DNA of 64,000 nucleotides from Acidobacteriota bacterium (GCA_965217775.1 CBDCJH010000002.1:5120001-5184000), one strand, 5' to 3'; positions 18,387 through 58,037 are shown, numbered from the stretch's first letter. Made by a program: numbers and translations. The notes: a model not told the origin generated them from the sequence alone.

Positions 18387-19325
18387 TCAGACTGAGTTCC
18401 ACGACGAATCGAGGGTGATCGTTTTGGATGTCATGGCCTTCATGGTGAAGATTAGAACCAGAATATTGTAGGTCGTGTCGAACGCCTCAGCGACGCACTC
18501 ATGCGGCACATTATTCCTGTCGAGGAATGGGATCAAGACAGGTCGAGTCATCCTGCAACCGATTGGCAACACTGGCCAAAGGAAATGATCGGGGGTAATC
18601 GTGGTGTCGTTGGGTAGACCAAACTGAGTAATGAAGGAGGGTGATGCCTCAATGCGCCGAACCGAGGCCCACATTGCGTTATCTCCAAATCCATCAGTCT
18701 CAACGGGATTCAGGACATAGACGACGCACGCGCTGTGGTTGGTCCGGGCGTATTCTCGGATTGAGGCATAGATGGAGGCCCCGAACTTCTTCGCAAGGCC
18801 GATCGGGGTTTTGATTCCTAATTCGCAGTCTGCAGCGTGGTCCGAAAAGGTGTTTCCCTTGAAGATCGCAAAGCGGGCGAAATTATTCGCCTCGCGCTCG
18901 AACTGATCTGTGATCTCCGGTGCAAGGGTCTTACGACAATCTTGGAAGAACCGGAACAACTTGCGATGCGTTGGCATCTCATGATGGGCAATTTCATGGA
19001 GTTTCAAGAAAGTCTGTTTAGCAAGTACGACACTGCCGTCGACGTGGATGAGTTTTTCACCGGCATCGTACAGGGCCAATACTTTGGCAATCGCTGACTT
19101 GATAAGGGCCCCCGTTCTGGTCGCCTTATCGTTGACATAGGAGAGAAGGGCGCGGCGATCAAAAGCGCTGGTGGGCGCAACCTGAACCTTGGCAGCCGCA
19201 AGAATGTCAGCTATGGGGATCGGGTATTTGTTCCAAGCATCGGCTCGGTCGAGGAGCCTTCTTGATCGCTCCTCGACCGCGCGCAGGTCTCCGGGATCAA
19301 GGCTGCTGTCGTCAGGTTTTATCAC
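18387..19325 (-). CDS. ImmA/IrrE-family metallopeptidase (CapP-like)
   Basis: HEIAHH (HExxH) and EREANNFA; overlaps the HTH gene. Confidence 0.85.
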   Translation of the reverse strand: MIKPDDSSLDPGDLRAVEERSRRLLDRADAWNKYPIPIADILAAAKVQVAPTSAFDRRALLSYVNDKATRTGALIKSAIAKVLALYDAGEKLIHVDGSVVLAKQTFLKLHEIAHHEMPTHRKLFRFFQDCRKTLAPEITDQFEREANNFARFAIFKGNTFSDHAADCELGIKTPIGLAKKFGASIYASIREYARTNHSACVVYVLNPVETDGFGDNAMWASVRRIEASPSFITQFGLPNDTTITPDHFLWPVLPIGCRMTRPVLIPFLDRNNVPHECVAEAFDTTYNILVLIFTMKAMTSKTITLDSSWNSV

Positions 19326-45873: not shown

Positions 45874-47790
45874 GTGCGCCAGGCTAACTGGCACAAGATA
45901 GGCGGTGGAAGTCCGCCGAAACGAAGGACTAACCATCCACGTTTCTCCGCGAGCCGTGCGTGGGCACCCGTGAGGGTGTCGGCGAAGCGTCGGTAGCGGT
46001 GCGTATGGGCAGGCTATTGAGCATCGAAAGCTCCCTGATCGGAAGTGCCGAGGCTGTAGTCGCGGTCGAAGGCAACACCGGCTGGACCGCCCAGGTGAGG
46101 GACGGTCGGGCTCCGCGGTGTCAAAGAACCCAGGCACGTACGCAAATCTTGTTCCGGGACCTGGGAGGGCTTCATTTCACCCCGGGGGGTCGCCCCGGGG
46201 TCGCATGAGAAAGGAGTAACCCGAAACTCATGATGGACGGAACGAAGCAATCGGATTCATCCATAGTAGCGATGAAGCGGGCGAACAAAGAGGGGCGACC
46301 CTCGGCGGAGCCGGTGGAGCGAAGGGATGGAACCAAGGGGAATTCGGTGAGCCAAAGCACGCGCCGGACGCAGAGTCGGGGGAGCGTGTCCCAAGCGGTG
46401 GACCGGATACGGCGAGCGATCGCGAGAAACCCCAAGGAGCGACTGACCGCGCTGCTGCACCATATCACTGTGGAGGCCCTGCGCCGCGCCTACCTCGGAC
46501 TGAGGAAGGATGCTGCGCCGGGAATCGATGGGGTACGGTGGGAGGAGTACGGGGCGAAGCTGGAAGAGCGACTGCTGGACCTGCATCGCCGCGTGCACCG
46601 GGGCGCGTACCGAGCGCCTCCCGTCCGGCGGGTGAACATCCCCAAGCCGGATGGAAGGACACGACCGCTCGGCGTGGCCGCGCTGGAGGACAAGATCCTC
46701 CAGAAGGCAGTCGTGGACGAGCTCCTGACGCCGATTTACGAGGCGGAGTTTCTCGGGCTCAGCTACGGGTTCCGGCCCGGACGGAAGGCGCATGACGCGC
46801 TGGATGCACTGGCCTACGGGATCGAACGGCGGAAAGTCAACTGGATCGTGGACGCGGACATTCGGACGTTTTTCGATGCCATCGACCGGGACCGGCTGCT
46901 GCGGTTCGTGGAACGGCGGATCGGAGACCGGCGGGTGCTGCGGCTGCTGCGCAAGTGGCTGAACGCCGGCGTGATGGAAGAAGGGACCTGGTCGGACTCG
47001 GGGAGAGGGACGCCTCAGGGCGCCAACGTCTCGCCGGTCATGGCCAACGTGTACCTGCACTACGTGCTGGACCAATGGTTCCATCGGACGTGGCGTCCAC
47101 GAGTCCCCAATGGCGAAGCGATCCTGGTGCGATATGCGGACGACTTCGTGGCCGGATTCCAGAGACGGGCGGACGCGAAACGGTTTCTCCGAGACCTGGG
47201 GGAACGGTGCGCCGAGTTCGGGCTGGAACTGCACCCGGAAAAGACGCGACTGGTGGAGTTCGGACGATTTGCGGCAGCGGATCGGCGACGACGCGGGGAG
47301 CGGAAACCGGAGACGTTCGACTTTCTGGGGTTCACGCACTACTGTGCGAAGACCCGGAAGGGACGCTTCCGGCTGGGGCGGAAGCCAAGCGCGAAACGGA
47401 TGAACCGGACCCTGCAACGGTTGGGGGAGAGGCTGTGGAGACAACGGCACGCGGATCACTGGGAGGTCGGGAAATGGTTGAGCCGGGTCCTGAACGGCTG
47501 GCTGAACTATTTTGCGGTTCCGGGGAGTACGCGCTGGCTGCGAGGTTTCTGCTATCTGCTGCAACGGCGGTGGCTGCGAGCCTTGCGCCGCCGGTCTCAG
47601 CGCGACCGCTTCAGTTGGAGACGGTTGCGACGGATGACGGAATTGCTCTGGCCATCCGTGAAGATCCGTCACCCGTGGCCGGGGCAGCGGTTCCGCTGGC
47701 CGTCCACACCCAAGGTAGGAGCCGGATGCCTTAACGGGCACGTCCGGATCTGTGCGGGGGGCGGCAGGAAACTGCCGTTCCTACCGTGAC
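45874..47790 (+). mobile_element. group II intron (full length)
   Basis: 5' GTGCG at 45874; domain V GAGCCGGATGCC...GCACGTCCGGATC; domain VI ending AC at 47790. Confidence 0.9.
46230..47789 (+). CDS. ltrA: group II intron reverse transcriptase/maturase, no endonuclease domain
   Basis: APGIDG, IPK.DG..RPLG, SYGFRPGR, GTPQG, RYADD, FDFLGF. Confidence 0.96.
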   Translation: MMDGTKQSDSSIVAMKRANKEGRPSAEPVERRDGTKGNSVSQSTRRTQSRGSVSQAVDRIRRAIARNPKERLTALLHHITVEALRRAYLGLRKDAAPGIDGVRWEEYGAKLEERLLDLHRRVHRGAYRAPPVRRVNIPKPDGRTRPLGVAALEDKILQKAVVDELLTPIYEAEFLGLSYGFRPGRKAHDALDALAYGIERRKVNWIVDADIRTFFDAIDRDRLLRFVERRIGDRRVLRLLRKWLNAGVMEEGTWSDSGRGTPQGANVSPVMANVYLHYVLDQWFHRTWRPRVPNGEAILVRYADDFVAGFQRRADAKRFLRDLGERCAEFGLELHPEKTRLVEFGRFAAADRRRRGERKPETFDFLGFTHYCAKTRKGRFRLGRKPSAKRMNRTLQRLGERLWRQRHADHWEVGKWLSRVLNGWLNYFAVPGSTRWLRGFCYLLQRRWLRALRRRSQRDRFSWRRLRRMTELLWPSVKIRHPWPGQRFRWPSTPKVGAGCLNGHVRICAGGGRKLPFLP

Positions 47791-47901
47791 TTCTTGCCGC
47801 CCTCTTAATCGCCGACCCGAAACCGCCGGCTGCAAAGCCTGCGTTCCCACGCCCCTTTTTTCTGCGCGGATTGCACGGCTCCACAGTTGGTCGGGCCTAT
47901 C

Positions 47902-47945: not shown

Positions 47946-48018
47946 GCCGGGGTAGCTCAGTCGGTAGAGCAGGGGACTGAAAATCCCCGTGTCGGCGGTT
48001 CGATTCCGTCCCCCGGCA
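47946..48018 (+). tRNA. tRNA-Phe (GAA)
   Basis: Acceptor stem GCCGGGG/CCCCGGC, D arm TAGCTCAGTCGGTAGAGC, anticodon loop CTGAAAA, GGTTCGATTCC; CCA not encoded. Confidence 0.97.
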
Positions 48019-48267
48019 CCCCTCTACGGAATCGCCTTCTTCCACTTCCTTCTACCGTCCGCAGACGGAGCATTCGGTCCCCTGCGCCCCCGTCAACCCG
48101 CAAAATCGCGAAGCGCATCTCGATGTGAAGGCGGCGCGCGCGCCTGCTGCTCGCGGAAGAGGCATCGAGCCGGCTCAGCAGAAAATAATCTCCATCCCGT
48201 CCAGTCGCCCCTTGCAGCATGATCTCGAATAAACCAAGTTTATTGGACTAAGTGTCAGGAGGATTGC

Positions 48268-48507
48268 ATGCGGACCGTCAGTATGGACGAAGCCAAGACG
48301 CACCTTTCGCGTCTCGTACAGGCCGCCGCCAATGGCGAGCCGTTCATCATCGCCCGTGCCGGCAGGCCGATGGTCAAAGTCGTCGCGGTAGACGCGCCGG
48401 ATCCCGGAACAATGTGCCGAATCGGGTTTCTGGCCGGCAGAATCTCGGTGCCGCCCGACTTCGACCGCATGGGCGCTGACGAGATCGAGACATTGTTCGA
48501 AGGTTGA
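48268..48507 (+). CDS. Phd/YefM antitoxin
   Basis: EAKTHLSRLV...GE..II.R.G.P. Confidence 0.93.
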   Translation: MRTVSMDEAKTHLSRLVQAAANGEPFIIARAGRPMVKVVAVDAPDPGTMCRIGFLAGRISVPPDFDRMGADEIETLFEG

Positions 48508-48509
48508 GC

Positions 48510-48896
48510 GTGAGTTTCCTCCTCGACACTCATGTCCTGCTTTGGGCCGCGGGTGTGCCGGATCGGTTGCCGGCCGATGCGCGCACGCTGATCGAAAACC
48601 CTGCGACGGAGTTGATCTACAGTGCGGCATCGCTCTGGGAGGTGGCCATCAAGAACGGGTTGGGGCGCGCGGATTTCAGCGTCGATCCAAGCCTGCTGCG
48701 CCGGGGGTTGCTGGAGAATGGTTACACGGAATTGGCCGTGACCGGCGCCCATGCAGTGGTTGTGCATGGGCTGCCGCCGATCCACAAGGATCCATTCGAC
48801 CGCCTCCTGGTCGCACAGGCTCTGATTGAAGGGGTGACGCTGGTGACGGTGGATGAAGTCGTGGGGCGCTACTCGGGGCCGATCCGGGTACTTTGA
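48510..48896 (+). CDS. vapC: VapC PIN-domain toxin
   Basis: LLDTH..LW, SLWE..IK, HKDPFDR, VT.D. Confidence 0.93.
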   Translation: MSFLLDTHVLLWAAGVPDRLPADARTLIENPATELIYSAASLWEVAIKNGLGRADFSVDPSLLRRGLLENGYTELAVTGAHAVVVHGLPPIHKDPFDRLLVAQALIEGVTLVTVDEVVGRYSGPIRVL

Positions 48897-48906
48897 TGGC
48901 CATCGT

Positions 48907-48948
48907 GAAAGAAAGTGACTGTCCCCTTCTCGTGACTGTCCCCTTCTC
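48907..48948 (+). repeat. junction motif, copies 1-2 (tandem)
   Basis: GAAAGAAA(GTGACTGTCCCCTTCTC)x2. Confidence 0.85.
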
Positions 48949-49071
48949 GCGGGGCGAAGCGCGCGATAGCTTTAGCCGCGACGTGCTGGCGCACGGGTTG
49001 CGGTTGACGGCGGGTAAGGCGAGAGGGGAACATGAACCCGTGTCGCGGAGTTGAATCGACTATGGACTGGC

Positions 49072-49289
49072 ATGAGTACATATCCGTCGATCCGAATGTC
49101 TGTCACGGCCAAGCGTGCATTGCTGGCACTCGTGTGATGGTAACGGTCATCCTGGACAATTTCGCTGCCGGATTGACCGTCGAGGAGATTGCCGAGAGCT
49201 ATCCTTCCGTTTCCACCGATGCGGTCAGGGCCACTCTGCACTACGCCGCCGAATTGGCCAAGGAACGAGTAGTGCCCCTGGGAGCATAG
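49072..49289 (+). CDS. DUF433 family protein (antitoxin-like)
   Basis: I.VDP.VCHG..CI.GTRV.V..IL..YP. Confidence 0.92.
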
Positions 49290-49298
49290 AGACTCCCC

Positions 49299-49520
49299 AT
49301 GCGACTAAAACTCGATGAGAACCTGCCCGGCGAGTTGGCGAGGCTTTTCATCGAGGCGGGGCATGATGCAGTGACGATCCTCGACCAGGAAATCGGCGGT
49401 GCGACGGATGCAATCGTCGCATCCGCTTGTCTTAGTGAGGGTCGTGCCATTGTGACGATGGATACGCATTTTGCTGATATCCGAGGGTATCCCCCACATC
49501 TCTACCCCGGAATAACGGTC
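49299..49520 (+). pseudogene. DUF5615 PIN-like toxin, C-terminally truncated
   Basis: KLDENL, GHD, GA.D, EGR.IVT.D..F; runs into antisense mazF sequence. Confidence 0.8.
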
Positions 49521-49735
49521 CCGTCTGGCCTGCCGATCCAGGCTCTTGATCTGGTCGGCCAGAACGACGCCGGTGAAGGTTCCGGCGGCAGGAAGGGCGA
49601 CCTCGAAGGGATAGCCCTTGGCTCGGGAGGTGATGGGGCAGAACAGGGCGAGGCCGGTTTTCCGATTGTAGTTTCTCGGGCTCAGCGCCAGGGTCGGGAA
49701 GCGTCCCGCTTGTTCATGGCCGGCTTTAAGATTGA
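49515..49735 (-). pseudogene. mazF internal fragment
   Basis: AGHEQAG..P.L.LSP..YN.KTGL...CPITS..KGYPFEV; paralogous to 51308..51655. Confidence 0.85.
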
Positions 49736-49741
49736 GAAGCG

Positions 49742-49767
49742 GAAAGAAAGTGACTGTCAACCTTCTC
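49742..49767 (+). repeat. junction motif, copy 3
   Basis: GAAAGAAAGTGACTGTCAACCTTCTC. Confidence 0.8.
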
Positions 49768-49771
49768 GCGG

Positions 49772-49905
49772 ATGGGTCTGGCGGGGGCGAAGCTGGCGCG
49801 GGCGCAGAACTGTACCCTGCTCGGGACATTGTTGAAGGTCGGAACTCAGGGCCGGGCCACCACGCGCGAGGTCTGGCTGTCGTTTTCCGAGAGCTACCCG
49901 TTGAC
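49772..49905 (+). pseudogene. IS1380-family transposase C-terminal remnant
   Basis: GLAG..LARAQ..TL...LLKVG......REVWLSFSESYP resembles IS1380 C-termini as recalled. Confidence 0.55.
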
Positions 49906-50408
49906 TAGATTACCCGGTTTCCCCAGGCAGAAATTACGTTCTCGCTTTCGTTTTGGAGCCGTCTGATTCCTGGCACGCTGAGCTTCGGAGTAGCTGGCAC
50001 AAAATCAAACTCCCAATCAACCCACTGGACCGGAAAGCCGACAGTCTGGGCATATTCGTATGCGGCCGTACAGTGATGCTGGTAGCTTTCCCATCCGTTT
50101 TGCATCAACTGGCAAATGCCTTTTACAGCGACTCCTTCAATACCTACGACTAGAGCACCGGATCTCAAGCTCAACAAGTCCCACATGATACGAGATGCTT
50201 GACTACTATACTCTTCACCGTACGCAATCAAATGTAGGTCCTTGACCGTGCGAATGAACGTGTCTTTATACCCCTTTTCAACCAAAGTGCAGAGTGTTCT
50301 CAGGTCTCCCAGTTTCGGCCATCCCTGGGCTACCACTTTTCGATGTTTCAACTCTTCGTAAGAAGCATTTCTCTGATTCCGATCAATGGCAAGCCACCAT
50401 GTATTCAC
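49905..50408 (-). CDS. hypothetical protein resembling the N-terminal domain of Mrr/McrB-type restriction proteins
   Basis: VAQGWPKLGDL...LRSGALVV...Y...V.W; low GC; GGAG before the GTG start. Confidence 0.55.
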   Translation of the reverse strand: MNTWWLAIDRNQRNASYEELKHRKVVAQGWPKLGDLRTLCTLVEKGYKDTFIRTVKDLHLIAYGEEYSSQASRIMWDLLSLRSGALVVGIEGVAVKGICQLMQNGWESYQHHCTAAYEYAQTVGFPVQWVDWEFDFVPATPKLSVPGIRRLQNESENVISAWGNRVI

Positions 50409-50488
50409 GGCTCCTCCCCCCTTTTCTTGAGTGACGTCCATTCTGAAGGTTTCGCCATATTGTACCCCTTGTTCGGATCAAGGCGGGA

Positions 50489-50514
50489 GAAAGAAAGTGA
50501 CTGTCCCCTTCTTC
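50489..50514 (+). repeat. junction motif, copy 4
   Basis: GAAAGAAAGTGACTGTCCCCTTCTTC. Confidence 0.85.
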
Positions 50515-51250
50515 CTGGTCCGCGACCCGTTGACTTCGCCAAACCGCGATCACGCAACCCCGCCAAGGCTCGCTTGATCTGCCGCTCGCTGGCATCAGCT
50601 ACCAAACCAGCAACAATCTCGCGCAAGGCCAAGCCATCCTCCGCGTCATCAAGCAGCGCCAAAATTGCATCTTACCGCTTGATCACGTCATCCCCGCTGC
50701 CTCTGGGCGGAACGTAGTCGGCGCGTCGAAAGCGCAACGTCACGCAATCGCCGCGTTCCTCGATCTCGGGCCGGGGCAGTCCGGCGGAGGTCGCCAGTTC
50801 CGCCATCCTGAGCGTACCGCGGCCCCACTCCTCGATAATGCCGCGCCGGTAGAAGGTGCGAGCGATCAGCGGATTCCAGGGCCGCGACTCGTGCGGCCCG
50901 AACAAATCATCCGGAGTCAGCCCGAAGTGCAGCGGGCCGGTCGAAGTCACCTCCAGGCGATCGTCGTACACCGCGAGCCCGATGGAGCCGCCGCCCATCG
51001 CGTAATCGCCGTGGCACAGAGCGTTCGCCAGCGCCTCGGGAGTGGCCAAGGGCGGGTAGAGCGGTTCGTCGATGCGCGCCATGCGTCCCGATTCGAACCG
51101 GCTGGCGATGGGCAGCGTTTCACGCAGGAAACGTTCCGCGTTCGCAAGGACCACGAAGGCGTTGCCGTTGAATTGCCGGTTGTCCAGGAAGTCGGAGCGG
51201 TTGGTGCCCCGAAAACGGGCCACGCGCAGCAGGCACTGCGGCATTTCGCG
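50515..51250 (-). pseudogene. AlbA/RecG-C (HATPase_c_4 + wHTH) protein fragment
   Basis: EALANALCH.DY, DRLEV.S.G, NPLIA..F...G.IE.WGRG; N-terminus missing, frameshift near 50670. Confidence 0.8.
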
Positions 51251-51258
51251 TGACTCGT

Positions 51259-51283
51259 GAAAGTAGGTGACTGTCCCCTTTTC
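51259..51283 (+). repeat. junction motif, copy 5
   Basis: GAAAGTAGGTGACTGTCCCCTTTTC. Confidence 0.85.
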
Positions 51284-51307
51284 GGTTCAACCCGTTTACG
51301 GCGCGGG

Positions 51308-51655
51308 TCAGGATTCGTTTTGATTCACGAGAACAGCCAGCTTCTCAAAAACTTCGCTCACTACCCGGGGCGGCGCCTTCGATTCGAAACGGACCCGTTT
51401 GGCCAGGCAATCCAGGCTCTTGATCTGGTCGGGCAAAATGACCCCGGCGCCGGCAGCAGGAAGGGCGACCTCGAAGGGATAGCCTTTGGCTCGGGAGGTG
51501 ATGGGGCAGAACAGGGCGAGGCCGGGTTTCTGATTGTAGCTTCTCGGGCACAGCGCCAGGGCCGGGAAGCGTCCGGCTTGTTCATGGCCGGCTTTAAGAT
51601 TGAAGGTCAGCCACACGATTTCCCCGTCTCCGGGGACGTAGGACCTCTTTACCAT
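51308..51655 (-). CDS. mazF: MazF/PemK toxin (possibly inactive)
   Basis: YVP..GEIVW..F...AGHEQAG, CPITS..KGYPFEV, DQIKSLD. Confidence 0.88.
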   Translation of the reverse strand: MVKRSYVPGDGEIVWLTFNLKAGHEQAGRFPALALCPRSYNQKPGLALFCPITSRAKGYPFEVALPAAGAGVILPDQIKSLDCLAKRVRFESKAPPRVVSEVFEKLAVLVNQNES

Positions 51656-51888
51656 GCCTCATTGCCTTGGGCGGGCCCGGTGTCCACCTCGGGATGCAGA
51701 TTCTCGTCCGTCACGGACGCCAGCATATCGGCCAAGCTGTAGGTCATCTTGCACAGTACGACTTGGTTGCCGCGCGAGACCATCTCGACGGTGGAGCCCT
51801 CATGCACCCCCCACTGCTCGGCGATGGGCTCGGGGATACGCACGGCCAAGCCGGACCCTCATTTGCAGATCTTTGATTTCGTACCCAA
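51649..51888 (-). pseudogene. mazE: MazE antitoxin with a nonsense codon
   Basis: AGGAGA RBS, TTG start: MGTKSKICK*GSGLAVRIP, TGA at 51859-51861 replacing the W of KWGNSL; operator TTTGTATCTACAAA at 51901-51914. Confidence 0.8.
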
Positions 51889-51979
51889 GGATAGTCTCCT
51901 TTTGTATCTACAAAAAATATCTTTTCCCGTGGTGTGATCAAGGCTCATCCGTGGAACGTTGAAGGGCCGGATCGCCCCC

Positions 51980-53494
51980 TCACTTGAACCGGAAGGAATA
52001 GATATCCGCATCCTTCATGACGAAGCGGAGCCGGATCGGCCTTTCCGCCAGACGGTCGAATCTCATGGGGTCGGTGGGGAGAAAACCCGGGCGGCTCCAC
52101 CGGATCCTTCTCTGAATGTGATCGCCGAAGATGACCGGCGATTCCTCCAGCGTGAAACCCGGAATGGGCTGCCCGTCCGCGTCCTGGACCTCGATTCGGA
52201 TGCTGCCCACGGCCGACGTCGAGAAGTTGAGGACCAGATCCCGGCCCTCGAATCGGAATGGCTTGGTGACGAATTCACCCCCGGAGTAGGGCGCTTTGAT
52301 GGAAGTAAAGCCGTCGGTGCGCAAGACGAAACGTTCCAGGTATGTGGACGGATAGGTGTAGTTGCGGGACGTGTAGATCGAAATCTCATCCGGGGCGGTG
52401 GGAACCACGCCCACGGCCGTGCTGTTGGTTCGGTGGATCCAGTTTCGTTCCTGCCGTCCCGGCCGGATGAAGGCCTCCGGAAAGGGGTTCCAGTCGATCC
52501 CGTCACGGCTGATCATGAAAACGGTCTCCGAAATGCCGGGCCGGGGAGCATCGTCGTGGATCTGCCGCAAGGGCTGGAAGCGCTTGGGAAAACCCAAGTA
52601 GATGTGAGGGGCCCGAAAATAGGGCGTGGCCGCGTTGGTGTAGAGGTGGTCCACGGGCCGGGCCTTGCCGTTGAAGGTGCAGGGGACCGGCTCGGTCCAG
52701 TTGAGAAGGTCCTTGGATGTGGTCCGGGCGAAGGTGCGCACGTCCTGGAGCATGTACCGGAAGTAGAAGACGTACTGTTGCTCCCACTCGGACCAGAAGA
52801 GGACGTTGACGGAGTCGAAGGCGTTGGGCAACGAGGTGACGAAGAGGGGGTCCTCCCGCCACTTCTTCCAGTGGAGCCCGTCGGGCGAGACCCAGAGCAC
52901 CAGGCCGATGGAGCGTTCGTTGGCCTGACCGAATCGGGGATTGATGCCCACTCCGCCCGGTGACTTGAAGCGGATCGCCGGGTCGACTCCCGGCCGGGTA
53001 TCCAGCAGGGGCGCTCCCCCAGCGTGGTCGGTGACGATGTTGTTTTCGGTGGATCCGTTGAACTCGTAGAGGCCCAGATTGGGCCGCGTCCACTGGATTC
53101 CGTCCCGGCTCTCGGCATAGCAGAGGAAGTTGGGATGCGGAGGCGTGAGTTTCTCGTCCGGTCTCAGTCCGGCCTTCCTGGCGTAGGTCGGATCGGTGCG
53201 ACCCATGTAGTACATCCGGAAGAGGTCGCCGTCCTTGAAGACGCTCAATTGCCAACTGGTGTTCCCCTCCCAGGGACGATCGAATTCCATGACTGTGCCG
53301 CCGGACCAGGGTGAGTGAGGGCGGATCTCCACACCCTTCATCTCGGCGATCAGATAGTCGTCCGCGAACAGCTCCAGTCGGGAACCGATGTCAACGGCTT
53401 CCATGGAAGTGGCCTCCGCCCCCGAAAGCAGGTGACCGGTCCAGGCCGTGGAACCGGCCAGCAGCATCAAGACTCGAAACCAGGATACGCGCAT
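51980..53494 (-). CDS. secreted glycoside-hydrolase-like beta-propeller protein
   Basis: Signal peptide, ELFADD, YAESRDGI.W.RP.LG, SRDG..W, LRTDGF. Confidence 0.75.
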   Translation of the reverse strand: MRVSWFRVLMLLAGSTAWTGHLLSGAEATSMEAVDIGSRLELFADDYLIAEMKGVEIRPHSPWSGGTVMEFDRPWEGNTSWQLSVFKDGDLFRMYYMGRTDPTYARKAGLRPDEKLTPPHPNFLCYAESRDGIQWTRPNLGLYEFNGSTENNIVTDHAGGAPLLDTRPGVDPAIRFKSPGGVGINPRFGQANERSIGLVLWVSPDGLHWKKWREDPLFVTSLPNAFDSVNVLFWSEWEQQYVFYFRYMLQDVRTFARTTSKDLLNWTEPVPCTFNGKARPVDHLYTNAATPYFRAPHIYLGFPKRFQPLRQIHDDAPRPGISETVFMISRDGIDWNPFPEAFIRPGRQERNWIHRTNSTAVGVVPTAPDEISIYTSRNYTYPSTYLERFVLRTDGFTSIKAPYSGGEFVTKPFRFEGRDLVLNFSTSAVGSIRIEVQDADGQPIPGFTLEESPVIFGDHIQRRIRWSRPGFLPTDPMRFDRLAERPIRLRFVMKDADIYSFRFK

Positions 53495-53646
53495 GATTCA
53501 CTCCTCGGTCGCAATTAGAACCGGTGTCTCGCAGGTTGTCACGTGGATGCGAAGAAATCCGATCGTGTTCGTATTGAAAACTCAATCGAGTGAGGATACG
53601 TTTCCTAACGATTCTCGCCAAGGGCTGCCAATAGGAGGGGTCGTGA

Positions 53647-54711
53647 ATGAGTCGGCATAAGGAATTCGATTTCGACAGCTTGCCCGAGGGCAGCAAGGAC
53701 TTCTACGAGCTGCGGTTGAAGGCACCGGATCTGACCCGTCTGACCGACGTCGTTCGGATGACCTGCGGCGACACGATTTCCCCGAACGCGATTTCTGACG
53801 CCATTGCGGCGCGGTTGGATGCCGGTTCGCTGTTGATCCCAGTCCTGGCGGTGAAAGGCGCCGGCCAGGGAAAGACTCTGGTGGCGACGGCCGGAGTTCA
53901 TGGGGACGAATACGAGGGCATGGAAGCCATCTTTCGCATCTTCGAAGCCCTCGACCCTTCCAACCTGTCCGGGACCTTCGTCGCGGTGCCGGTAGTGACG
54001 CTTCCGGCGTTCTGGCAGGCGACGCGGGCGAATCCTGTAGACGGCCTCAACATGGCCCGTATCTTTCCCGGGTCCCCTTCGGGGAGCATGAGCGAGCGGC
54101 TGGCCGCTCTGATGCTGGAGAAGGTCTTCCGGCATGCCGACCTCTACATCGACCTGCACAGCGCGGGCCGGAACAACGCCATGATGACTCTGGTCGGCTA
54201 CGCGGCCCTGGGCCGGCAGGCCGAGACGGCCCGGGCGGCGGCGGAGTGCTTCGGAGCCCCCATGATCTGGGAGCATCCCAAGGTCTCTCCCGGCCGCACG
54301 TTGACGGAGACCCTGAAATTGGAGATTCCGTCCCTCTACACCGAGGCGCGGGGAGGGGGCCGTGCCCATCCCGACGACGTGGATTGCTACACTCGGGGGC
54401 TTGCCAATCTGCTGGCGTTTCTCGATATGGCGCAACTCCCCGCTGCCGGCCTGGAAGCGGACTACGAGCCGCTGCGGCTCTGCGGCGACGGCGACGTGGA
54501 CGTCTCCATGAAGTCTCAGAGCAGCGGGCTCTTCTTCTCAGGCGCCCGTGTGGGGATGCGGGTTCGCGAAGGGGATCTGCTGGGAATGATCCGGGACCTG
54601 GACGGAACGCCGTTGGAGGAAGTCCGGAGTCCTCAGGACGGGGTCCTGGTGATGATCCGGACCAATCCCCGCATCTTCGCCGGTGAGGTCCTCCTGGTCA
54701 TCAACGCCTGA
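53647..54711 (+). CDS. succinylglutamate desuccinylase/aspartoacylase (M14) family protein
   Basis: AGVHGDEYEG, NMARIFPG, DLHS, C-terminal barrel-sandwich domain. Confidence 0.9.
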   Translation: MSRHKEFDFDSLPEGSKDFYELRLKAPDLTRLTDVVRMTCGDTISPNAISDAIAARLDAGSLLIPVLAVKGAGQGKTLVATAGVHGDEYEGMEAIFRIFEALDPSNLSGTFVAVPVVTLPAFWQATRANPVDGLNMARIFPGSPSGSMSERLAALMLEKVFRHADLYIDLHSAGRNNAMMTLVGYAALGRQAETARAAAECFGAPMIWEHPKVSPGRTLTETLKLEIPSLYTEARGGGRAHPDDVDCYTRGLANLLAFLDMAQLPAAGLEADYEPLRLCGDGDVDVSMKSQSSGLFFSGARVGMRVREGDLLGMIRDLDGTPLEEVRSPQDGVLVMIRTNPRIFAGEVLLVINA

Positions 54712-55029
54712 GCCGGCTCCATCACCGCATCCGTTCCTCTTAATGTCCGGTGGGACGGTTCAGTCCAGCCTCTTGATCTTGAGATTCCGGAACCAGACCG
54801 GATCGCTGTGGTCCTGAAGGACGATGTGGCCCACGTCGGCGAGCCCATAGTGGGGGAAATCCTTGAACTTGCTGGCGGCCACCCTCTGTTTCCAGTCCTC
54901 GCTGCGCAGTTCGTACTCCACGATCTTCTCGCCGTTCATCCAGTGCTCCACGTGGTTGCCGTGGGCGACGATTCCCACCTGGTTCCACTCGCCGGCCTTT
55001 CGAGCCACGTCCTTCGAGGGAGGATGAAG
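54481..55029 (+). repeat. ~550-bp direct repeat, copy A (astE-like 3' end + DUF1080 3' fragment)
   Basis: Colinear with 56136..56685. Confidence 0.9.
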
Positions 55030-55031
55030 CA

Positions 55032-55055
55032 GAAAAAAGTGACTGCCCCCTTCTC
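55032..55055 (+). repeat. junction motif, copy 6
   Basis: GAAAAAAGTGACTGCCCCCTTCTC. Confidence 0.8.
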
Positions 55056-55140
55056 GAAGCCAGAGCGCCACCAAACATATGACTTGGGGATAGATCCTTG
55101 TAGGATGGGCGCCGATTTTCCGTTAATCTGATAAAGGTCA

Positions 55141-55530
55141 ATGTCGCTAGGCGTGGTCGTCAAGGGCCCCGAGGCGTTAGTACTGGCAGCGGATACTCGA
55201 GTGACTGTTACTGGTCGACATCGTAATGGTCCTGAGATACCTGTCAACTTCGACGATTTGACCCTAACCTGCTTGAATTGCTGCGTCAGCGATTCAATCT
55301 GTCAGATTCTCAGACTCGGGAGTTTGCGAACGCTCTCAGACTAAATCTGGAGTACGCGATACCCTATAGCGTACTTCCGCTTCAGGCCTGCGTCGATCTC
55401 GCGACCTTCCTGATCAGAACCACGATGACTGCCCAAAGTCTTGCCGTTGGATTACGAGGTGTCGGTGGTGCCATCAACGTAGCGACGATAACCTGAAGAG
55501 ACGGCCTGAAGTGGGTCCAGAAAAAAAGAA
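55141..55530 (+). pseudogene. proteasome-beta/Ntn-hydrolase-like protein, internally deleted
   Basis: MSLGVVVKGPEALVLAADTRVT; C-terminal GVGGAINVATIT*RDGLKWVQKK in another frame. Confidence 0.6.
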
Positions 55531-55575
55531 TACGCGGAGAGAATCGCCATGTCAGACCAAACTTCGACCACTAGC

Positions 55576-55866
55576 ATGAAAAGCTGGATGCGTTCTGGGT
55601 GGAGGATTCTTCCTGGTAACGTCCTCGCAGAAAGTGAAGCGTTGATACCCCCTGCGCCTGCGGCGACCATGGACATATTCGATGAACGAGATAAATCGGA
55701 AAATCCGCTGCAAGAGAAACACGACTCCAATTGCGATTGGGAACTCTTGGAAGATCTGGCCGATGCACAAAAAGCGTTGGAAGAGTACGAAGCTGTAGGT
55801 ATAGAGGGCACTATCCCTTACAGCGAGTACCGAGCAAAGCGACTTGGTTCGAAATACCGAGTATGA
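55576..55866 (+). CDS. putative antitoxin
   Basis: Acidic ELLEDLAD...GTIPYSEY; directly upstream of the RelE gene; start uncertain. Confidence 0.55.
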   Translation: MKSWMRSGWRILPGNVLAESEALIPPAPAATMDIFDERDKSENPLQEKHDSNCDWELLEDLADAQKALEEYEAVGIEGTIPYSEYRAKRLGSKYRV

Positions 55867-56111
55867 CGTTCGCCTAACCCCTCATGCCGAGCGCGATCTT
55901 CAGCGCCTGTCCGCTACGGACTTTCGTCGAGTCGATGAGCGCATCGTATCCTTGGCGCAAGACCCGCGTCCCCACGGTGTTCGAAAACTTTGGAAAAAGG
56001 CCCATCGGTTACGCGTCGGTCCGTGGAGAATCATCTGCATCATCGATGACTCCAATGGGGATCGTTCTGGTAAACAAGGTCGTCCGCCGAGAGAAAAATA
56101 CCTACCGCTGA
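55844..56111 (+). pseudogene. RelE/ParE toxin, frameshifted
   Basis: Y.V.LT..AERDL..L, I..L..DPRP.G..KL, RLRVG.WRII; tail IVLVNKVVRREKNTYR* in another frame. Confidence 0.8.
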
Positions 56112-56135
56112 ATTGACCACGTAAAGGCGGGGCTT

Positions 56136-56685
56136 TGCGGCGACGGCGACGTGGATGTCTCCATGCGGTCCGGATGCAGCGGACTTTTCTTCTCGGCCGC
56201 CCGCCTGGGCATGCGGGTCCGGCGCGGGCAGGTGCTGGGAATGATTCGGGATCTGGACGGTACGCCCTTGCAGGAAGTCCGGAGTTCTCAGGATGGGGTG
56301 CTGGTGATGTTCCGAACCAATCCCCGCATCTTCGCCGGCGAGGTTCTGCTGGTCGTCAACGCCTGATCCGGCGCCTCGACCGCGGCCGTTCCTCTTTTGT
56401 GTTCGAAGGGACGGTTCAGTCCAACTTTCTGATCTTGATGTTCCGGAACCAGACCGGATCGCTGTGGTCCTGCAGGACGATGTGACCCACGTCGGCGAGC
56501 CCGTAGTGGGGGAGATCCTTGAACTTGCTGGCGGCCACCTTCTGTTTCCAGTCCTCGCTGCGCAGTTCGTACTCAACGATCTTCTCGCCGTTCATCCAGT
56601 GCTCCACGTGGTTGCCGTTGGCGACGATTCCCACCTGGTTCCACTCGCCGGCCTTTCGAACCACATCCTTCGAGGGGGGATGAAG
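56136..56685 (+). repeat. ~550-bp direct repeat, copy B
   Basis: Orphan astE-like 3' fragment plus the 3' end of the intact DUF1080 gene. Confidence 0.9.
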
Positions 56686-57150
56686 AGCGTAGTTGGCGCC
56701 GGCGCTGGTCTCCCGCTTGGCACCGTCGCGGTGGCCGGCATCGTCCAGAACCTGCATCTCCGGTCCCGTGAACCAGAGGCTTTCGAACTCCTCGCTGGCC
56801 CGAAAGAAAATGCCGCTGTTGCCGGCCTCCAGGACCTTCCATTCCAGCCGCAAATCGAAGTTGCCGTACTCTTCCCGGGTGATGATGTCCCCGGCCCGGA
56901 CCTTTCCGGTGTAGTGGATGGAGTCGTCGTTGACTTCCCACCCTTTCGGAACCTCCTGGCTCCTGAAACCTCGCCACTGATCCAGGTTCTTGCCGTCGAA
57001 GAGCAACGTCCAACCTTCGGCACGCTCCTCGTCGGTCAGGGTGTTCAACATCGGGGCCGCCTCCTCCTCCATCGCCGGCTCGGAGTCGGGTACGGCGCAG
57101 GAGGCGAAGCAGACCAATATTCCCGATAGCAGGGTTTTCGTTCTTGTCAT
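56416..57150 (-). CDS. DUF1080 (3-keto-disaccharide hydrolase) lipoprotein
   Basis: Lipobox FASC, GW.LLFDG, NSGIF, EMQVLD, GHIVLQDH, FRNIKIR. Confidence 0.92.
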   Translation of the reverse strand: MTRTKTLLSGILVCFASCAVPDSEPAMEEEAAPMLNTLTDEERAEGWTLLFDGKNLDQWRGFRSQEVPKGWEVNDDSIHYTGKVRAGDIITREEYGNFDLRLEWKVLEAGNSGIFFRASEEFESLWFTGPEMQVLDDAGHRDGAKRETSAGANYALHPPSKDVVRKAGEWNQVGIVANGNHVEHWMNGEKIVEYELRSEDWKQKVAASKFKDLPHYGLADVGHIVLQDHSDPVWFRNIKIRKLD

Positions 57151-57185
57151 GATGGTCTCCATCAAGGTCCGGAATGAAAGGGACT

Positions 57186-58037
57186 TCACACCCGGACGAA
57201 TTTGGTCAGGCCGCCGTTGACGCCCACCTCGCCGACGTAGATGTCGCCGCGGCTGTCCCCCCAAATGGCGTGGGGAGAGCCTGGGAATTGCCCTGGACCG
57301 TCCCCCTTTTCGCCCCAACGGGAGAGCAGTCGGCCGTCCCGGTCGAGGACGCTGACGCGCTGACGGAGTTCGGCAACGAAAACGGTCTCGTCCGGATCGA
57401 ACCAGACGAAGTCGGGCCCATATGGATCGGCCCACTCCCTCAGGTAGATTCCCTCGCCGTCGAAGATCTGAATCCGGTTGTTGGAGCGGTCGCAGACATA
57501 GACCAGGTATTCGGAATCGACCCAGACGTCATGAACCAGGTCGAATTGCCCGGGTCCCGTGCCCGGCTCGCCCCAACTCTTCAGGAGCACGCCGTCCGGT
57601 GAGAACTTGTGCACTTTGGCGTTGCCGTATCCGTCGCTGACGAACAGGCAACCGTCGGGGGCGATGGCCAGATTCGTGGGCAGGTTGAAAGGCACGCCTG
57701 GAGGACGGGGTACGCCAGGGGTGCCCAGGGTCCACTGCAACTCTCCGTCTGAGGTGAGTTTGTGGACACAGTGGCCTTGCCACTCGGTGCAGTAGAGGTT
57801 GTCTGCCGCATCGATGCGGAGGCCGTGAGCGTTGTGCAACAGATCCTCCCCCCAGGAGGTGAGGAAGTTTCCGTCCCGGTCGAAGACGACCATGGGGTGC
57901 TCGCTTCGGCTGTACACGTAGACTCGGTCCCGGCTGTCGACGGCGATGGCGGGAATCCAGCCGAAGGTCCAACCCGGCGGGAGCTTGGCCCAATCGCGCA
58001 CCGGTTCGTACTGATAGTCACCCTGTCCCACTCGCAT
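57186..58037 (-). CDS. NHL-repeat protein (PAL-like)
   Basis: VSDGYGN, WG..G.GPGQF..H, DRSNNRIQIFD. Confidence 0.88.
   Translation of the reverse strand: MRVGQGDYQYEPVRDWAKLPPGWTFGWIPAIAVDSRDRVYVYSRSEHPMVVFDRDGNFLTSWGEDLLHNAHGLRIDAADNLYCTEWQGHCVHKLTSDGELQWTLGTPGVPRPPGVPFNLPTNLAIAPDGCLFVSDGYGNAKVHKFSPDGVLLKSWGEPGTGPGQFDLVHDVWVDSEYLVYVCDRSNNRIQIFDGEGIYLREWADPYGPDFVWFDPDETVFVAELRQRVSVLDRDGRLLSRWGEKGDGPGQFPGSPHAIWGDSRGDIYVGEVGVNGGLTKFVRV

Follow-up and report, generated by a model that had tools for sequence, protein, structure and literature searches.

A genome-wide 25-bp repeat, probably cognate to a Y1 HUH transposase family, coincides with homology breaks in co-oriented gene-module arrays of an Acidobacteriota genus

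The stretch of DNA analyzed here, 64,000 nucleotides of one strand from an Acidobacteriota bacterium (GCA_965217775.1 CBDCJH010000002.1:5120001-5184000; hereafter the window, with positions counted from its first letter), carries between 48907 and 55055 an array of genes and gene fragments punctuated by a motif of about 25 bp, an imperfect palindrome centered on GACTGTC. Every motif copy in this segment coincides with a homology break. A first-pass annotation, made from the sequence alone, had proposed the motif as a recombination or cleavage site of a trans-acting enzyme and had ranked it as a candidate undescribed system. Taken as a whole, the evidence gathered below makes it probable that the window motif is one subfamily (type c) of the cognate repeats of a Y1 HUH enzyme, found throughout the genus and acting as a joint for module swapping in such arrays.

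Modules and Motif Copies in the Window

The source assembly (G000) consists of two contigs, C1 and C2, totaling 6.43 Mb with an estimated contamination of 7.47%. It was compared within a sample of 41 genomes, namely the source, 8 congeneric genomes, 6 from a sister genus, and 26 others from the order; one of them (G016) is unpublished and enters the tallies only. The window array and its surroundings comprise the following features.

47946..48020, plus strand: tRNA-Phe gene (ARAGORN), conserved left anchor of the variable array; the same anchor is found at the orthologous locus in 10 haplotypes
48268..48896, plus strand: phd/yefM antitoxin and PIN (vapC) toxin genes, first module (Pfam PhdYeFM_antitox 2.2e-10, PIN 1.2e-9)
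48907..48931, plus strand: motif copy 1, GAAAGAAAGTGACTGTCCCCTTCTC, 0 mismatches to the 25-mer
48932..48948, plus strand: tandem partial copy, GTGACTGTCCCCTTCTC, an exact repeat with a 17-nt period (core match at 48930)
49032..49289, plus strand: DUF433 gene (Pfam 3.4e-22)
49299..49513, plus strand: DUF5615 (PIN-like) gene, shortened (Pfam profile positions 1-77 of 110) and fused to a mazF fragment
49514..49735, minus strand: PemK/MazF fragment (Pfam), 89% identical to window 51388-51603
49742..49767, plus strand: motif copy 2, right half degenerate, GTCAACCTTCTC (core match at 49748)
49905..50441, minus strand: 178-aa open reading frame (ORF) of no known family (no Pfam match), with a paralog at C2:815421-815954 (85%)
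50489..50513, plus strand: motif copy 3, 1 mismatch to the 25-mer
50514..51247, minus strand: HATPase_c_4 ("RecG C-terminal") fragment, both ends cut (Pfam 3.4e-19)
51259..51283, plus strand: motif copy 4, 1 mismatch to the 25-mer
51308..51849, minus strand: mazF (PemK) and mazE pair (Pfam 1.1e-17 and 8e-8)
54476..55029, no strand assigned: 554-bp duplicated segment, copy one (AstE 3' end and 3' part of a 3-keto-disaccharide hydrolase gene), ending at motif copy 5
55031..55055, plus strand: motif copy 5, AGAAAAAAGTGACTGCCCCCTTCTC, 1 mismatch to the core and 4 to the 25-mer
55056..56130, plus strand: 1.1-kb insert with a ParE-like toxin ORF (55844-56116; Pfam ParE_toxin 5e-6)
56131..56685, no strand assigned: 554-bp duplicated segment, copy two, running into the intact hydrolase gene (56416-57435, minus strand)

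Motif copies were located by searching the window with the 25-mer and with a 16-mer core, AAGTGACTGTCCCCTT, each at no more than 3 mismatches, with chance expectation taken from shuffled sequence. The 25-mer matches at 48907, 50489, and 51259 (0.00 expected, 100 shuffles), and the core at 48913, 48930, 49748, 50495, 51265, and 55037, that is, six matches against 0.48 expected and a shuffle maximum of 3. All of these lie on the plus strand, although the adjacent genes occupy both strands. Two of the six copies, at 49742 and 55031, are degenerate, and the right half of the former (GTCAACCTTCTC) shows about 5 differences from the consensus by manual count. These searches recover the same-strand set that had been described in the first-pass annotation (a tandem pair at 48907, then 49742, 50489, and 51259), and the positions reproduce its distances of 835, 747, and 770 bp in the main array; the outlying copy is also present, with its start at 55031 rather than at 55032.

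The copies had further been said to sit at module boundaries, and here Pfam matches, self-comparison, and comparisons with C1 and with the genus all agree. Copy 1 lies 10 nt past the stop codon of the PIN (vapC) gene, and at this point the homology partner switches in comparisons with C1 and with G006, G007, and G008. Copy 2 abuts the PemK/MazF fragment ending at 49735 and, together with its right flank, matches C2:2122551-2122707 at 80%. Copies 3 and 4 bracket the HATPase_c_4 fragment. Homology to G003 and G008 begins right after copy 3, at 50514, and the same 734-bp piece recurs at 97% identity in G003 and 93% in G008, there without an abutting motif. Copy 4, with its mazEF pair, is common to the window and C1:123786-123054, and copy 5 forms the left edge of the 1.1-kb insert, where the hydrolase fragment ends. 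As for the shortened DUF5615 gene, G007 carries about 257 bp extra at the joint. In C1 the gene is cut by the motif at 49353 and in contigs of two metagenome runs (X13 and X2, see below) position 49311 is joined to the motif.

The 1.1-kb insert is present in G006 and absent from C1 and 7 genus genomes, and the duplicated segments on its two sides (54476-55029 and 56131-56685) are 88% identical. Between 55254 and 55255, a further 388 letters are present in each of the four metagenome runs, and about 380 bp more in G006; therefore, the window has a deletion inside this insert.

A High-Copy Extragenic Repeat Family

A scan of the genome and its relatives, as had been suggested for this motif, places the window copies in a large repeat family. 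The 14-mer GTGACTGTCCCCTT (at most 1 mismatch) has 108 matches in the genome (59 + 49), against 0 + 1 for the reversed control, while a 12-nt core occurs 236 times against 20 in the control. When the core must also be preceded by a purine-rich and followed by a pyrimidine-rich flank, 279 copies are obtained against 11 in the control. Three main subfamilies can be distinguished among the 279 copies around the core GACTGTCCCC: type a, GGAAAAA(T/C)A-GACTGTCCCC-TT; type b, GGAATCGA-GACTGTCCCT-TTCC; and type c, GAGAGAAG-GTGACTGTCCCC-TTCTC, which has 98 copies and is the kind found in the window. The type c consensus can be written as GAGAAG-GTGACT/GTCCCCTTCTC, the slash marking the bond discussed below.

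The copies lie outside long reading frames: only 8% are in a frame that stays open for at least 100 codons both to the left and to the right, compared with 64% of 1000 randomly chosen positions, so that the family is extragenic and high-copy in the way of REPtrons, the units formed by a Y1 transposase gene and repetitive extragenic palindromic (REP) sequences. They are also clustered and co-oriented. Of 162 c-like copies, 139 fall into groups with gaps of no more than 6 kb, and adjacent copies within groups share a strand in 93 cases and are opposed in 18. Neighbors are a median of 916 bp apart (interquartile range 282-1757 bp; overall 0.03-5.7 kb). The genome holds about 20 such co-oriented arrays, of which window segment 48907-55055 is one.

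Gene content was scanned for 150 of 172 selected array ORFs, after a GC3 filter. The toxin-antitoxin and defense genes of the arrays are PIN, MazE, PemK, BrnT/CopG, AbiE, Fic, GmrSD, and SLFN_AlbA_2 genes as well as a DruA-Tn5 fusion. Metabolic genes are present too, as are pieces of DUF1501, PSCyt2, and sulfatase genes. The DruA-Tn5 fusion is a 783-aa ORF (L120 8646-10997, minus strand, in G000:C1) with a Druantia DruA domain and Tn5-type domains (DDE_Tnp_1, Tnp_DNA_bind, Dimer_Tnp_Tn5), and it interrupts the array's DUF433 gene in C1.

Motif Copies at Homology Breaks

It had been proposed that the motif joins DNA without respecting gene borders, and that its enrichment at breakpoints be examined. 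This material lends support to the proposal: copies coincide with homology breaks within the genome, against C1, and across the genus, and homology between paralogs or orthologs stops a few nucleotides from the motif, leaving gene fragments. Among the 324 flanks of the 162 copies, 110 have no paralog, in 116 homology ends short of the motif, and in 98 it extends up to the motif. Of these 98, 45 have at least one paralog that carries the motif at that place and 59 have at least one that does not, according to a crude check of the paralogs that missed some motifs. Among the junctions listed, homology ends 7-16 nt on the 5' side of GTGAC or 4-13 nt on the 3' side of CCCCTT. Examples are the hydrolase fragment ending at 55029, to be compared with the intact gene at 56685, and C2:1822150-1822730, to be compared with its source at C2:1812132-1812698.

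Read in reverse, contig C1 (144 kb) aligns collinearly, at 92-97% identity, with C2:5150334-5303614, a region that takes in window 30334-64000. C1 represents either the haplotype of a second strain within the assembly or a large duplication. The collinearity between C1 and C2 breaks at motif arrays, and most genuine C1 copies lie at homology edges. Only the copies at 18698, 67423, 128590 and, in an alignment with many gaps, 68353 fall within continuous alignment. Across the genus, the array next to tRNA-Phe is a hot spot whose content differs in every genome: between tRNA-Phe and a glycosyl-hydrolase-like gene, all 10 of the 10 haplotypes carry 2-8 co-oriented copies with differing modules.

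Metagenomic material (Logan contigs from 4 runs of 4 studies, matched at 90% likeness) adds alternative joins. Among the joints listed, a motif-edge end is seen in 5 of 15 joints and in 12 of 12 joints with inserted letters, and the joint of 48931/48932 to 50493-50516 is seen in three runs. Some of these joints may derive from other loci, since the contigs are short and the motif is repeated. The alternative joins that the earlier annotation had suggested looking for are seen in contigs, whereas the circles it had mentioned alongside them were not demonstrated. A joint in run X12 that leads from 51288 back by 773 to 50516 was considered as a circular module. Both a circle and a tandem copy would account for it, and since only 34 letters of repeat make up the shorter side of the joint, we draw no inference from it.

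A Y1 HUH Enzyme Family Flanked by the Repeats

Among the enzymes that had been put forward as acting on the motif in trans, a Y1/HUH protein of the TnpA-REP kind is supported by a shared core, by flanking repeats, and by co-occurrence in 10 of the 41 genomes. A Pfam Y1_Tnp scan of the genome gives three places. At one of them, C2:2626206-2627141, an ORF encoding a 311-aa Y1 protein sits between motif copies, with two inverted copies per side. tblastn finds 11 full-length paralogs of this protein in the source genome, 10 of them intact, all 11 retaining HFH and YVELNA, with 83-99.7% protein identity (pairwise median 87.5%) and 86-99% nucleotide identity (median 91%). All of them are flanked by motif variants, as the suggested inspection of Y1_Tnp neighborhoods had anticipated: an inverted (minus-strand) copy lies 128-297 bp upstream of 11 of 11, and a direct (plus-strand) copy lies 158-317 bp downstream of 10 of 11, the eleventh having an inverted copy at 208 bp. 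One paralog (C2:5113913-5114845) lies about 5 kb ahead of the window start. The window motif has a 10-nt core in common with the repeats flanking all 11 genes.

The protein matches Pfam Y1_Tnp at 37.3 bits (cut-off 23), and its best NCBIfam match is REP_Tyr_transpos (NF047646; E 1.7e-13, profile positions 3-144 of 146). Because a PDB search by sequence gave no match, we turned to the fold. An AlphaFold2 model built on 50 sequences (pLDDT 91.5) has as its top Foldseek match in the PDB 4er8_A, the REP-associated tyrosine transposase (RAYT) bound to a REP hairpin (E 1.1e-6, TM 0.76 by target length), followed at ranks 2-30 by the IS608 and ISDra2 transposases. The Pfam match, the 4er8_A fold match, and the HFH motif and tyrosine conserved in 11 of 11 paralogs together identify a Y1 HUH fold with its catalytic tyrosine. 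The C-terminal part of the model is helical and confidently predicted; a Pfam search of the full-length protein (E up to 0.01) yields Y1_Tnp only and no helix-turn-helix (HTH) or DnaA_C tail. Two classical RAYT-like genes (C2:5635223-5635942 and C2:4665591-4666265) were rejected as partners, as no motif lies within 1.5 kb of either. An insertion sequence of the IS200/IS605 type was likewise set aside: the 311-aa protein has no match to the transposase model NF033573, the median nucleotide identity of the genes is 91%, and the flanking sites are inverted.

The distribution of enzyme and repeat agrees among relatives. Counts of the 14-mer (at most 1 mismatch) are 30-108 in the 9 genus genomes (30-87 outside the source), 60 in G023, which belongs to another family, and no more than 11 in the remaining 31. 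Y1 homologs of at least 73% identity, 3-12 matches each, occur in exactly the same 10 genomes. In the sister genus, Y1 homologs have 44-54% identity and the motif excess is absent. Among homolog loci with full flanks in other metagenome-assembled genomes (MAGs; titled Acidobacteriota), an upstream inverted copy is present in 48 of 48 and a downstream direct copy in 37 of 48, and two G023 loci have a type-c-like copy downstream, directly flanking the Y1 gene. More distant homologs, of 54-58% identity, have the inverted repeats GAAGGGGACAG...CTGTCCC as flanks, in agreement with the GGGGWSAS signature (PMC3733652) discussed below. Homologs of the 311-aa family form 87 clusters at E up to 1e-30. 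The flanking arrangement, the co-occurrence, and the fold pair the enzyme with the repeat, and on comparative grounds the motif is very probably a cognate site of this RAYT/TIRYT-type Y1 HUH transposase family.

A whole Y1 unit, gene plus flanking repeats (1.66 kb, G000:C2:5250100-5251760), is present in C2 and not in C1. The unit lies between duplicated 88-bp stretches, 91% identical, that correspond to the 3' end of an upstream gene (an ankyrin-repeat gene by eye), and its right junction comes directly after ...CCCCTTCTCA.

Comparison with Known Systems

RAYT-like genes with inverted repeats sharing GGGGWSAS were named TIRYTs, and the corresponding units TIRtrons, with a sharply defined group in Acidobacteria and with repeats that may build up families of moderate abundance, arranged as dimers or clusters (Di Nocera et al., 2013; PMC3733652). 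According to the classification of Quentin et al. (2018; PMC6006769), most TIRYTs belong to TnpA-Y1 subclass 2.1, which is characterized there by the motifs NH[YF]H and Y[IV]ELNP, by a C-terminal tail, by 1.9 copies per genome on average, and by the absence of a detected REP nearby. The pair described here is of this kind (TIRYT, RAYT Group 1). The core of the repeat, read as its reverse complement GGGGACAGTC, conforms to GGGGWSAS, GGGGACAG being the reverse complement of CTGTCCCC, and an upstream inverted copy accompanies 11 of 11 paralogs and 48 of 48 MAG loci. The proposal of an undescribed system is therefore not sustained for the enzyme and its repeat, because RAYT-like genes with GGGGWSAS repeats had already been published as TIRYT/TIRtron (PMC3733652) and as subclass 2.1 (PMC6006769). 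Other likenesses are the C-terminal extension, the existence of an Acidobacteria-specific group, and the ability of the repeats to cluster. The family consensus has NHYH, FW..RF, and YVELNP, and the source genome NHFH and YVELNA. In a comparison at the level of short motifs with Table 1 of PMC6006769 (NHVH or NH[YF]H; YIELNP or Y[IV]HLNP; W[EQ]), the W motif here is FW(S/G)(D/E)RF rather than W[EQ]. Subclass 2.3 (NHYH, YVDLNP, 325 aa, multi-copy), as given in the same source, is an alternative class for the 311-aa protein.

What sets the present case apart is the number of repeats and genes, the hot-spot arrays of co-oriented copies, the severing of gene fragments at the site, and the footprints at its center. 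About 100 type c copies and about 280 copies in total contrast with about 12 occurrences on average reported for the flanking 16-mers of RAYT Group 1 (Bertels et al., 2017; PMC5581495), the 11 full-length genes contrast with the mean of 1.9 in Table 1 of PMC6006769, and the abundant repeat contrasts with the absence of REP-like sequence by subclass 2.1 genes stated there. Pfam gives no HTH or DnaA_C tail of the kind associated with subclass 2.1 (Bac_DnaA_C, HTH_23, or HTH_28-like). Co-oriented kilobase-module arrays and repeat-cut gene fragments do not appear in the published descriptions we consulted in part. Our literature searches found the TIRYT/TIRtron names only in PMC3733652 and PMC6006769, and in the portions of the literature they covered found no description of about 20 co-oriented arrays, of kilobase modules with motif-cut gene fragments, or of footprints pointing to a GACT/GTCC nick. 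The nearest was a preprint tying TnpA-REP genes to lanthipeptide gene expansion, a causality that its authors later judged unproven (10.1101/2020.03.09.984088).

Three other known systems each share part of this arrangement. The REP/RAYT REPtrons (E. coli TnpA-REP, PDB 4ER8; Pseudomonas REPINs) correspond in the best fold match, the best NCBIfam family, and the placing of a gene between inverted copies of a short extragenic repeat with tens to hundreds of copies; the break suggested below, after CT, also corresponds to a mapped TnpA-REP cleavage site (PMC8266576). Here, by contrast, there is neither a GTAG guide nor a stable hairpin, the gene is multi-copy rather than single-copy, the neighbors are mostly direct copies 0.03-5.7 kb apart rather than inverted doublets, and the break would fall within the site rather than beside a hairpin. 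Members of the IS200/IS605 family (IS608, ISDra2) share the Y1 HUH fold and the strand-specific cleavage 3' of a short target word that is proposed here. By that analogy, modules with the target word (GACT) at their right end would yield head-to-tail arrays. They differ in that the 311-aa protein lacks an NF033573 match, the flanking sites are inverted here and not direct, and no replichore bias is seen, whereas IS608 shows a replichore strand bias. Protein identity is 83-99.7%, as opposed to about 99% for subclass 1.1 in Table 1 of PMC6006769.

Integrons, finally, resemble the arrays in their co-oriented modules, several hundred to several thousand base pairs long, at a fixed chromosomal place, in the abundance of toxin-antitoxin genes, in content that varies between close relatives, and in single-stranded substrates, which may also apply to the repeat here. 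Their attC sites are single-stranded as substrates and measure roughly 55-140 bp. The arrays differ in having no IntI, a 25-bp site, an HUH enzyme instead of a tyrosine recombinase, and modules that hold genes on either strand as well as gene fragments.

Footprints at the Motif Center and a Proposed Mechanism

In the source genome, 7 of 37 exact tandem duplications near motif copies start at GACT/GTCC, no other offset accounting for more than 2. Duplications of the right half, 11-22 nt long, are listed in 13 cases. There are 84 occurrences of the right half GTCCCCTTCTC, against 5 for the control; GACT precedes it in 49 cases and AACT in 7. At the orthologous site of G002, there is a 27-nt mini-module plus a right-half duplication of about 17 nt. 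When the arrays of G023 are cut at ACT/GTCC, they resolve into modules of 15-334 bp that recur in permuted order, one such series reading A B C D E F G A F H D F G I J G A F F J F. In this 3.4-Mb genome, the dense arrays L124 (G023:C1:1486000-1491500) and L123 1100-2900 consist of 16-21 motif-bounded mini-modules of 15-211 bp, in permuted order and without long ORFs, and have the look of a graveyard, or else a playground, for this same kind of recombination.

Mapped TnpA-REP cleavage sites are CT or CA dinucleotides, and the 3'-OH left by cleavage can prime synthesis or attack another covalent complex, as reported in PMC8266576. We propose that the Y1 enzyme would nick one strand at the center of the site, after the CT of GACT/GTCC, and that the left half of one copy would be joined to the right half of another direct copy. 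The DNA between direct copies could in this way be lost, gained, or reordered as a module, in an integron-like manner but relying on HUH chemistry. The right-half duplications could arise if a short stretch of displacement synthesis starts at the nick before the ends are religated, and homologous recombination via motif-adjacent fragments could add insertions with long imperfect duplications. Such an exchange would explain the co-orientation of the copies, which follows neither gene direction nor replichore. This nick-and-rejoin scheme is inferred from sequence patterns, and we put forward module exchange catalyzed by the Y1 enzyme as tentative, somewhat short of an even chance. The stronger proposal, that a RAYT/TIRYT-type HUH family acts as a single-strand "cassette recombinase" that nicks a 24-25-nt site at GACT/GTCC and swaps strands between direct copies, is possible but on the doubtful side.

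Weighing the Explanations

Several observations weigh against such an enzymatic joint. No filled-site/empty-site pair was found between C1 and C2, where genuine copies are either shared or at a break, so that a simple insertion model was rejected for this comparison, and no circle was demonstrated in the assembled contigs, in which the motif is a repeat. The breaks in gene fragments fall outside the conserved arms and away from the proposed nick; exchange at the center alone therefore cannot create gene fragments. The DUF5615/mazF joint (49513/49514) lacks the motif altogether. Two insertions are bordered by imperfect duplications, of 88 bp (the Y1 unit) and 554 bp (the window; the latter common to the window and G006, and 162 bp shorter in G006), which suggests integration via homologous recombination rather than site-specific insertion. 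The nick-exchange model leaves unexplained both these duplication-flanked insertions and the origin of a complete site abutting or lying within a gene. At loci of the other genomes, duplications starting at +4 make up 8 of 106 events, tied with those at +7 (8/106).

The properties of the repeat and of the enzyme raise further difficulties. The palindrome is a poor hairpin in silico: in six folds of the five window copies as single-stranded DNA, minimum free energies were -0.2 to -2.8 kcal/mol, with z from -0.7 to +0.9, no better than shuffles, and the reading of the palindrome as a stable, REP-like hairpin was dropped. Arm covariation is modest (Watson-Crick 0.60-0.64 vs. 0.52-0.53 shuffled, at three offsets), the repeat consensus lacks a GTAG guide, and pairs of the hairpin type, right half then left half, are not found in the source genome. 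The copies show no consistent replichore strand preference when the replichores are set by GC skew (origin about 4.95 Mb, terminus about 1.65 Mb). The REP_Tyr_transpos score, 50.7 bits, is under the equivalog cut-off of 80. Y1 genes in the source genome are flanked by types a and b only, never by type c; the link of type c to the enzyme rests on the shared core, the co-occurrence, and G023.

Part of this evidence would also suit a passive repeat, spread by the Y1 enzyme in a REP-like manner, with the joints made by RecA-type or illegitimate recombination and without any shuffling by an enzyme. The recombining units would then be identical copies of 14-25 bp and duplicated fragments, in dispensable, fast-turning DNA. 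The 88-bp and 554-bp duplications do look like single-crossover integration through homology, the arrays are a junkyard of ordinary gene fragments (DUF1501, PSCyt2, sulfatase) and not only of toxin-antitoxin and defense genes, and the break at 49513/49514 occurs without the motif. However, homology ends at 4-16 nt from the motif among the junctions listed (of the 98 flanks), the 15-40-nt modules bounded at ACT/GTCC and permuted in G023 are far under any homology requirement, right-half duplications begin at one fixed phosphodiester bond, and same-strand neighbors outnumber opposite-strand ones by 93 to 18. We regard passive spread as unlikely, although it deserves to be taken seriously. The core site of a tyrosine recombinase, whether integron-, Xer/dif-, or shufflon-like, would account for the geometry of the motif, with its 8-nt inverted arms (GAGAAGGT / GAGAAGGG) and 7-nt spacer GACTGTC, and for toxin-antitoxin-rich, co-oriented arrays of 0.3-2-kb modules, which chromosomal integron arrays resemble; a Phage_integrase fragment even lies inside one array (C2:2115579-2115773). 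Against it, none of the 26 Phage_integrase matches in the genome falls in the window, in agreement with the first-pass annotation that no integrase is present there, and all but one fragment lie outside the listed arrays by manual comparison of coordinates. The best match to the integron integrase model (TIGR02249) in the source genome scores 80.6 bits against a cut-off of 265, and the Y1 gene tracks the motif in 10 of 10 genomes, co-occurrence having been scored for Y1 only. Half-site duplications are not known as a product of tyrosine recombinases. The tyrosine recombinase option of the earlier annotation thus fared poorly, and we consider it very improbable.

A regulatory or structural element, such as a terminator, insulator, or operator at module ends with no role in recombination, is marginally less probable again. 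The copies are extragenic, copy 1 follows the vapC stop so closely, and such roles have been credited to REPs (PMC6006769). However, orientation tracks the array and not the genes (all copies are on the plus strand in the window, with genes on both strands), the hairpin is weak, and gene fragments cut by the motif would be left without an explanation. The joints might finally have been created by an assembler at a short repeat. The assembly does mix haplotypes, as 150 kb of C2 reappears in C1 with 92-97% identity and the estimated contamination is 7.47%. The same kind of array nonetheless stands at the same locus in 8 other genus genomes, six of them in a single contig, and the window joints are covered by contigs of 4 independent runs, which makes an artefact hardly credible. 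A cognate repeat of the Y1 HUH family that serves as a joint for module swapping remains the explanation we prefer.

Implications

The cellular role of RAYT-type Y1 transposases, which occur in about a quarter of bacterial species (PMC6006769), is still open, and the largest group (Group 1, subclass 2.1) has been reported without an abundant cognate repeat. In the present genus, the member is multi-copy and its 25-nt site is defined; about 100 copies of this site mark breaks in variable regions, and the footprints predict which bond is cut. Whether these enzymes rearrange host DNA can therefore be tested using a handful of oligonucleotides and a reporter with two sites. If the cassette recombinase proposal is true, the enzyme would assemble, permute, and delete modules (toxin-antitoxin and defense genes and pieces of ordinary genes) at hot spots, an integron-like function built on HUH chemistry and a first proposed cellular role for Group 1 domesticated Y1 transposases. 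If module exchange occurs, toxin-antitoxin and defense islands of these Acidobacteriota may be built by a mechanism parallel to, but unrelated to, that of integrons. The motif can in addition be used as a marker for variable regions in these genomes.

Other Elements Near the Arrays

Just before tRNA-Phe, at window 46230-47789 (to about 47790-47800), lies a group II intron reverse transcriptase gene (RVT_1, 1.8e-35). Its last 300 bp recur at 98% identity in 10 further places of the genome, and the whole 1.9-kb element is missing from haplotype C1.

Beside motif copy 2, window 49770-49900 belongs to a repeat of 130-400 bp, the window piece being 80-85% identical to copies elsewhere (G000:C2:1952672-1953067, 2805968-2806287, 1813287-1813632, and 6057374-6057480). 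Some 850 bp separate one of these places from a group of three tyrosine recombinase genes. Four such trios are present, at about 1689-1691, 2397-2399, 2807-2809, and 3539-3542 kb, which resemble "recombinase in trio" elements.

The genome also contains a second palindromic repeat family, GGGGGACAAGAATGTCCCCC (window 22868), with 54 copies at no more than 2 mismatches against 0 for the reversed control. Its copies are mostly solitary; none is close to either of the classical RAYT-like genes, and a 311-aa Y1 gene is found within 2 kb of only 1 of 53.

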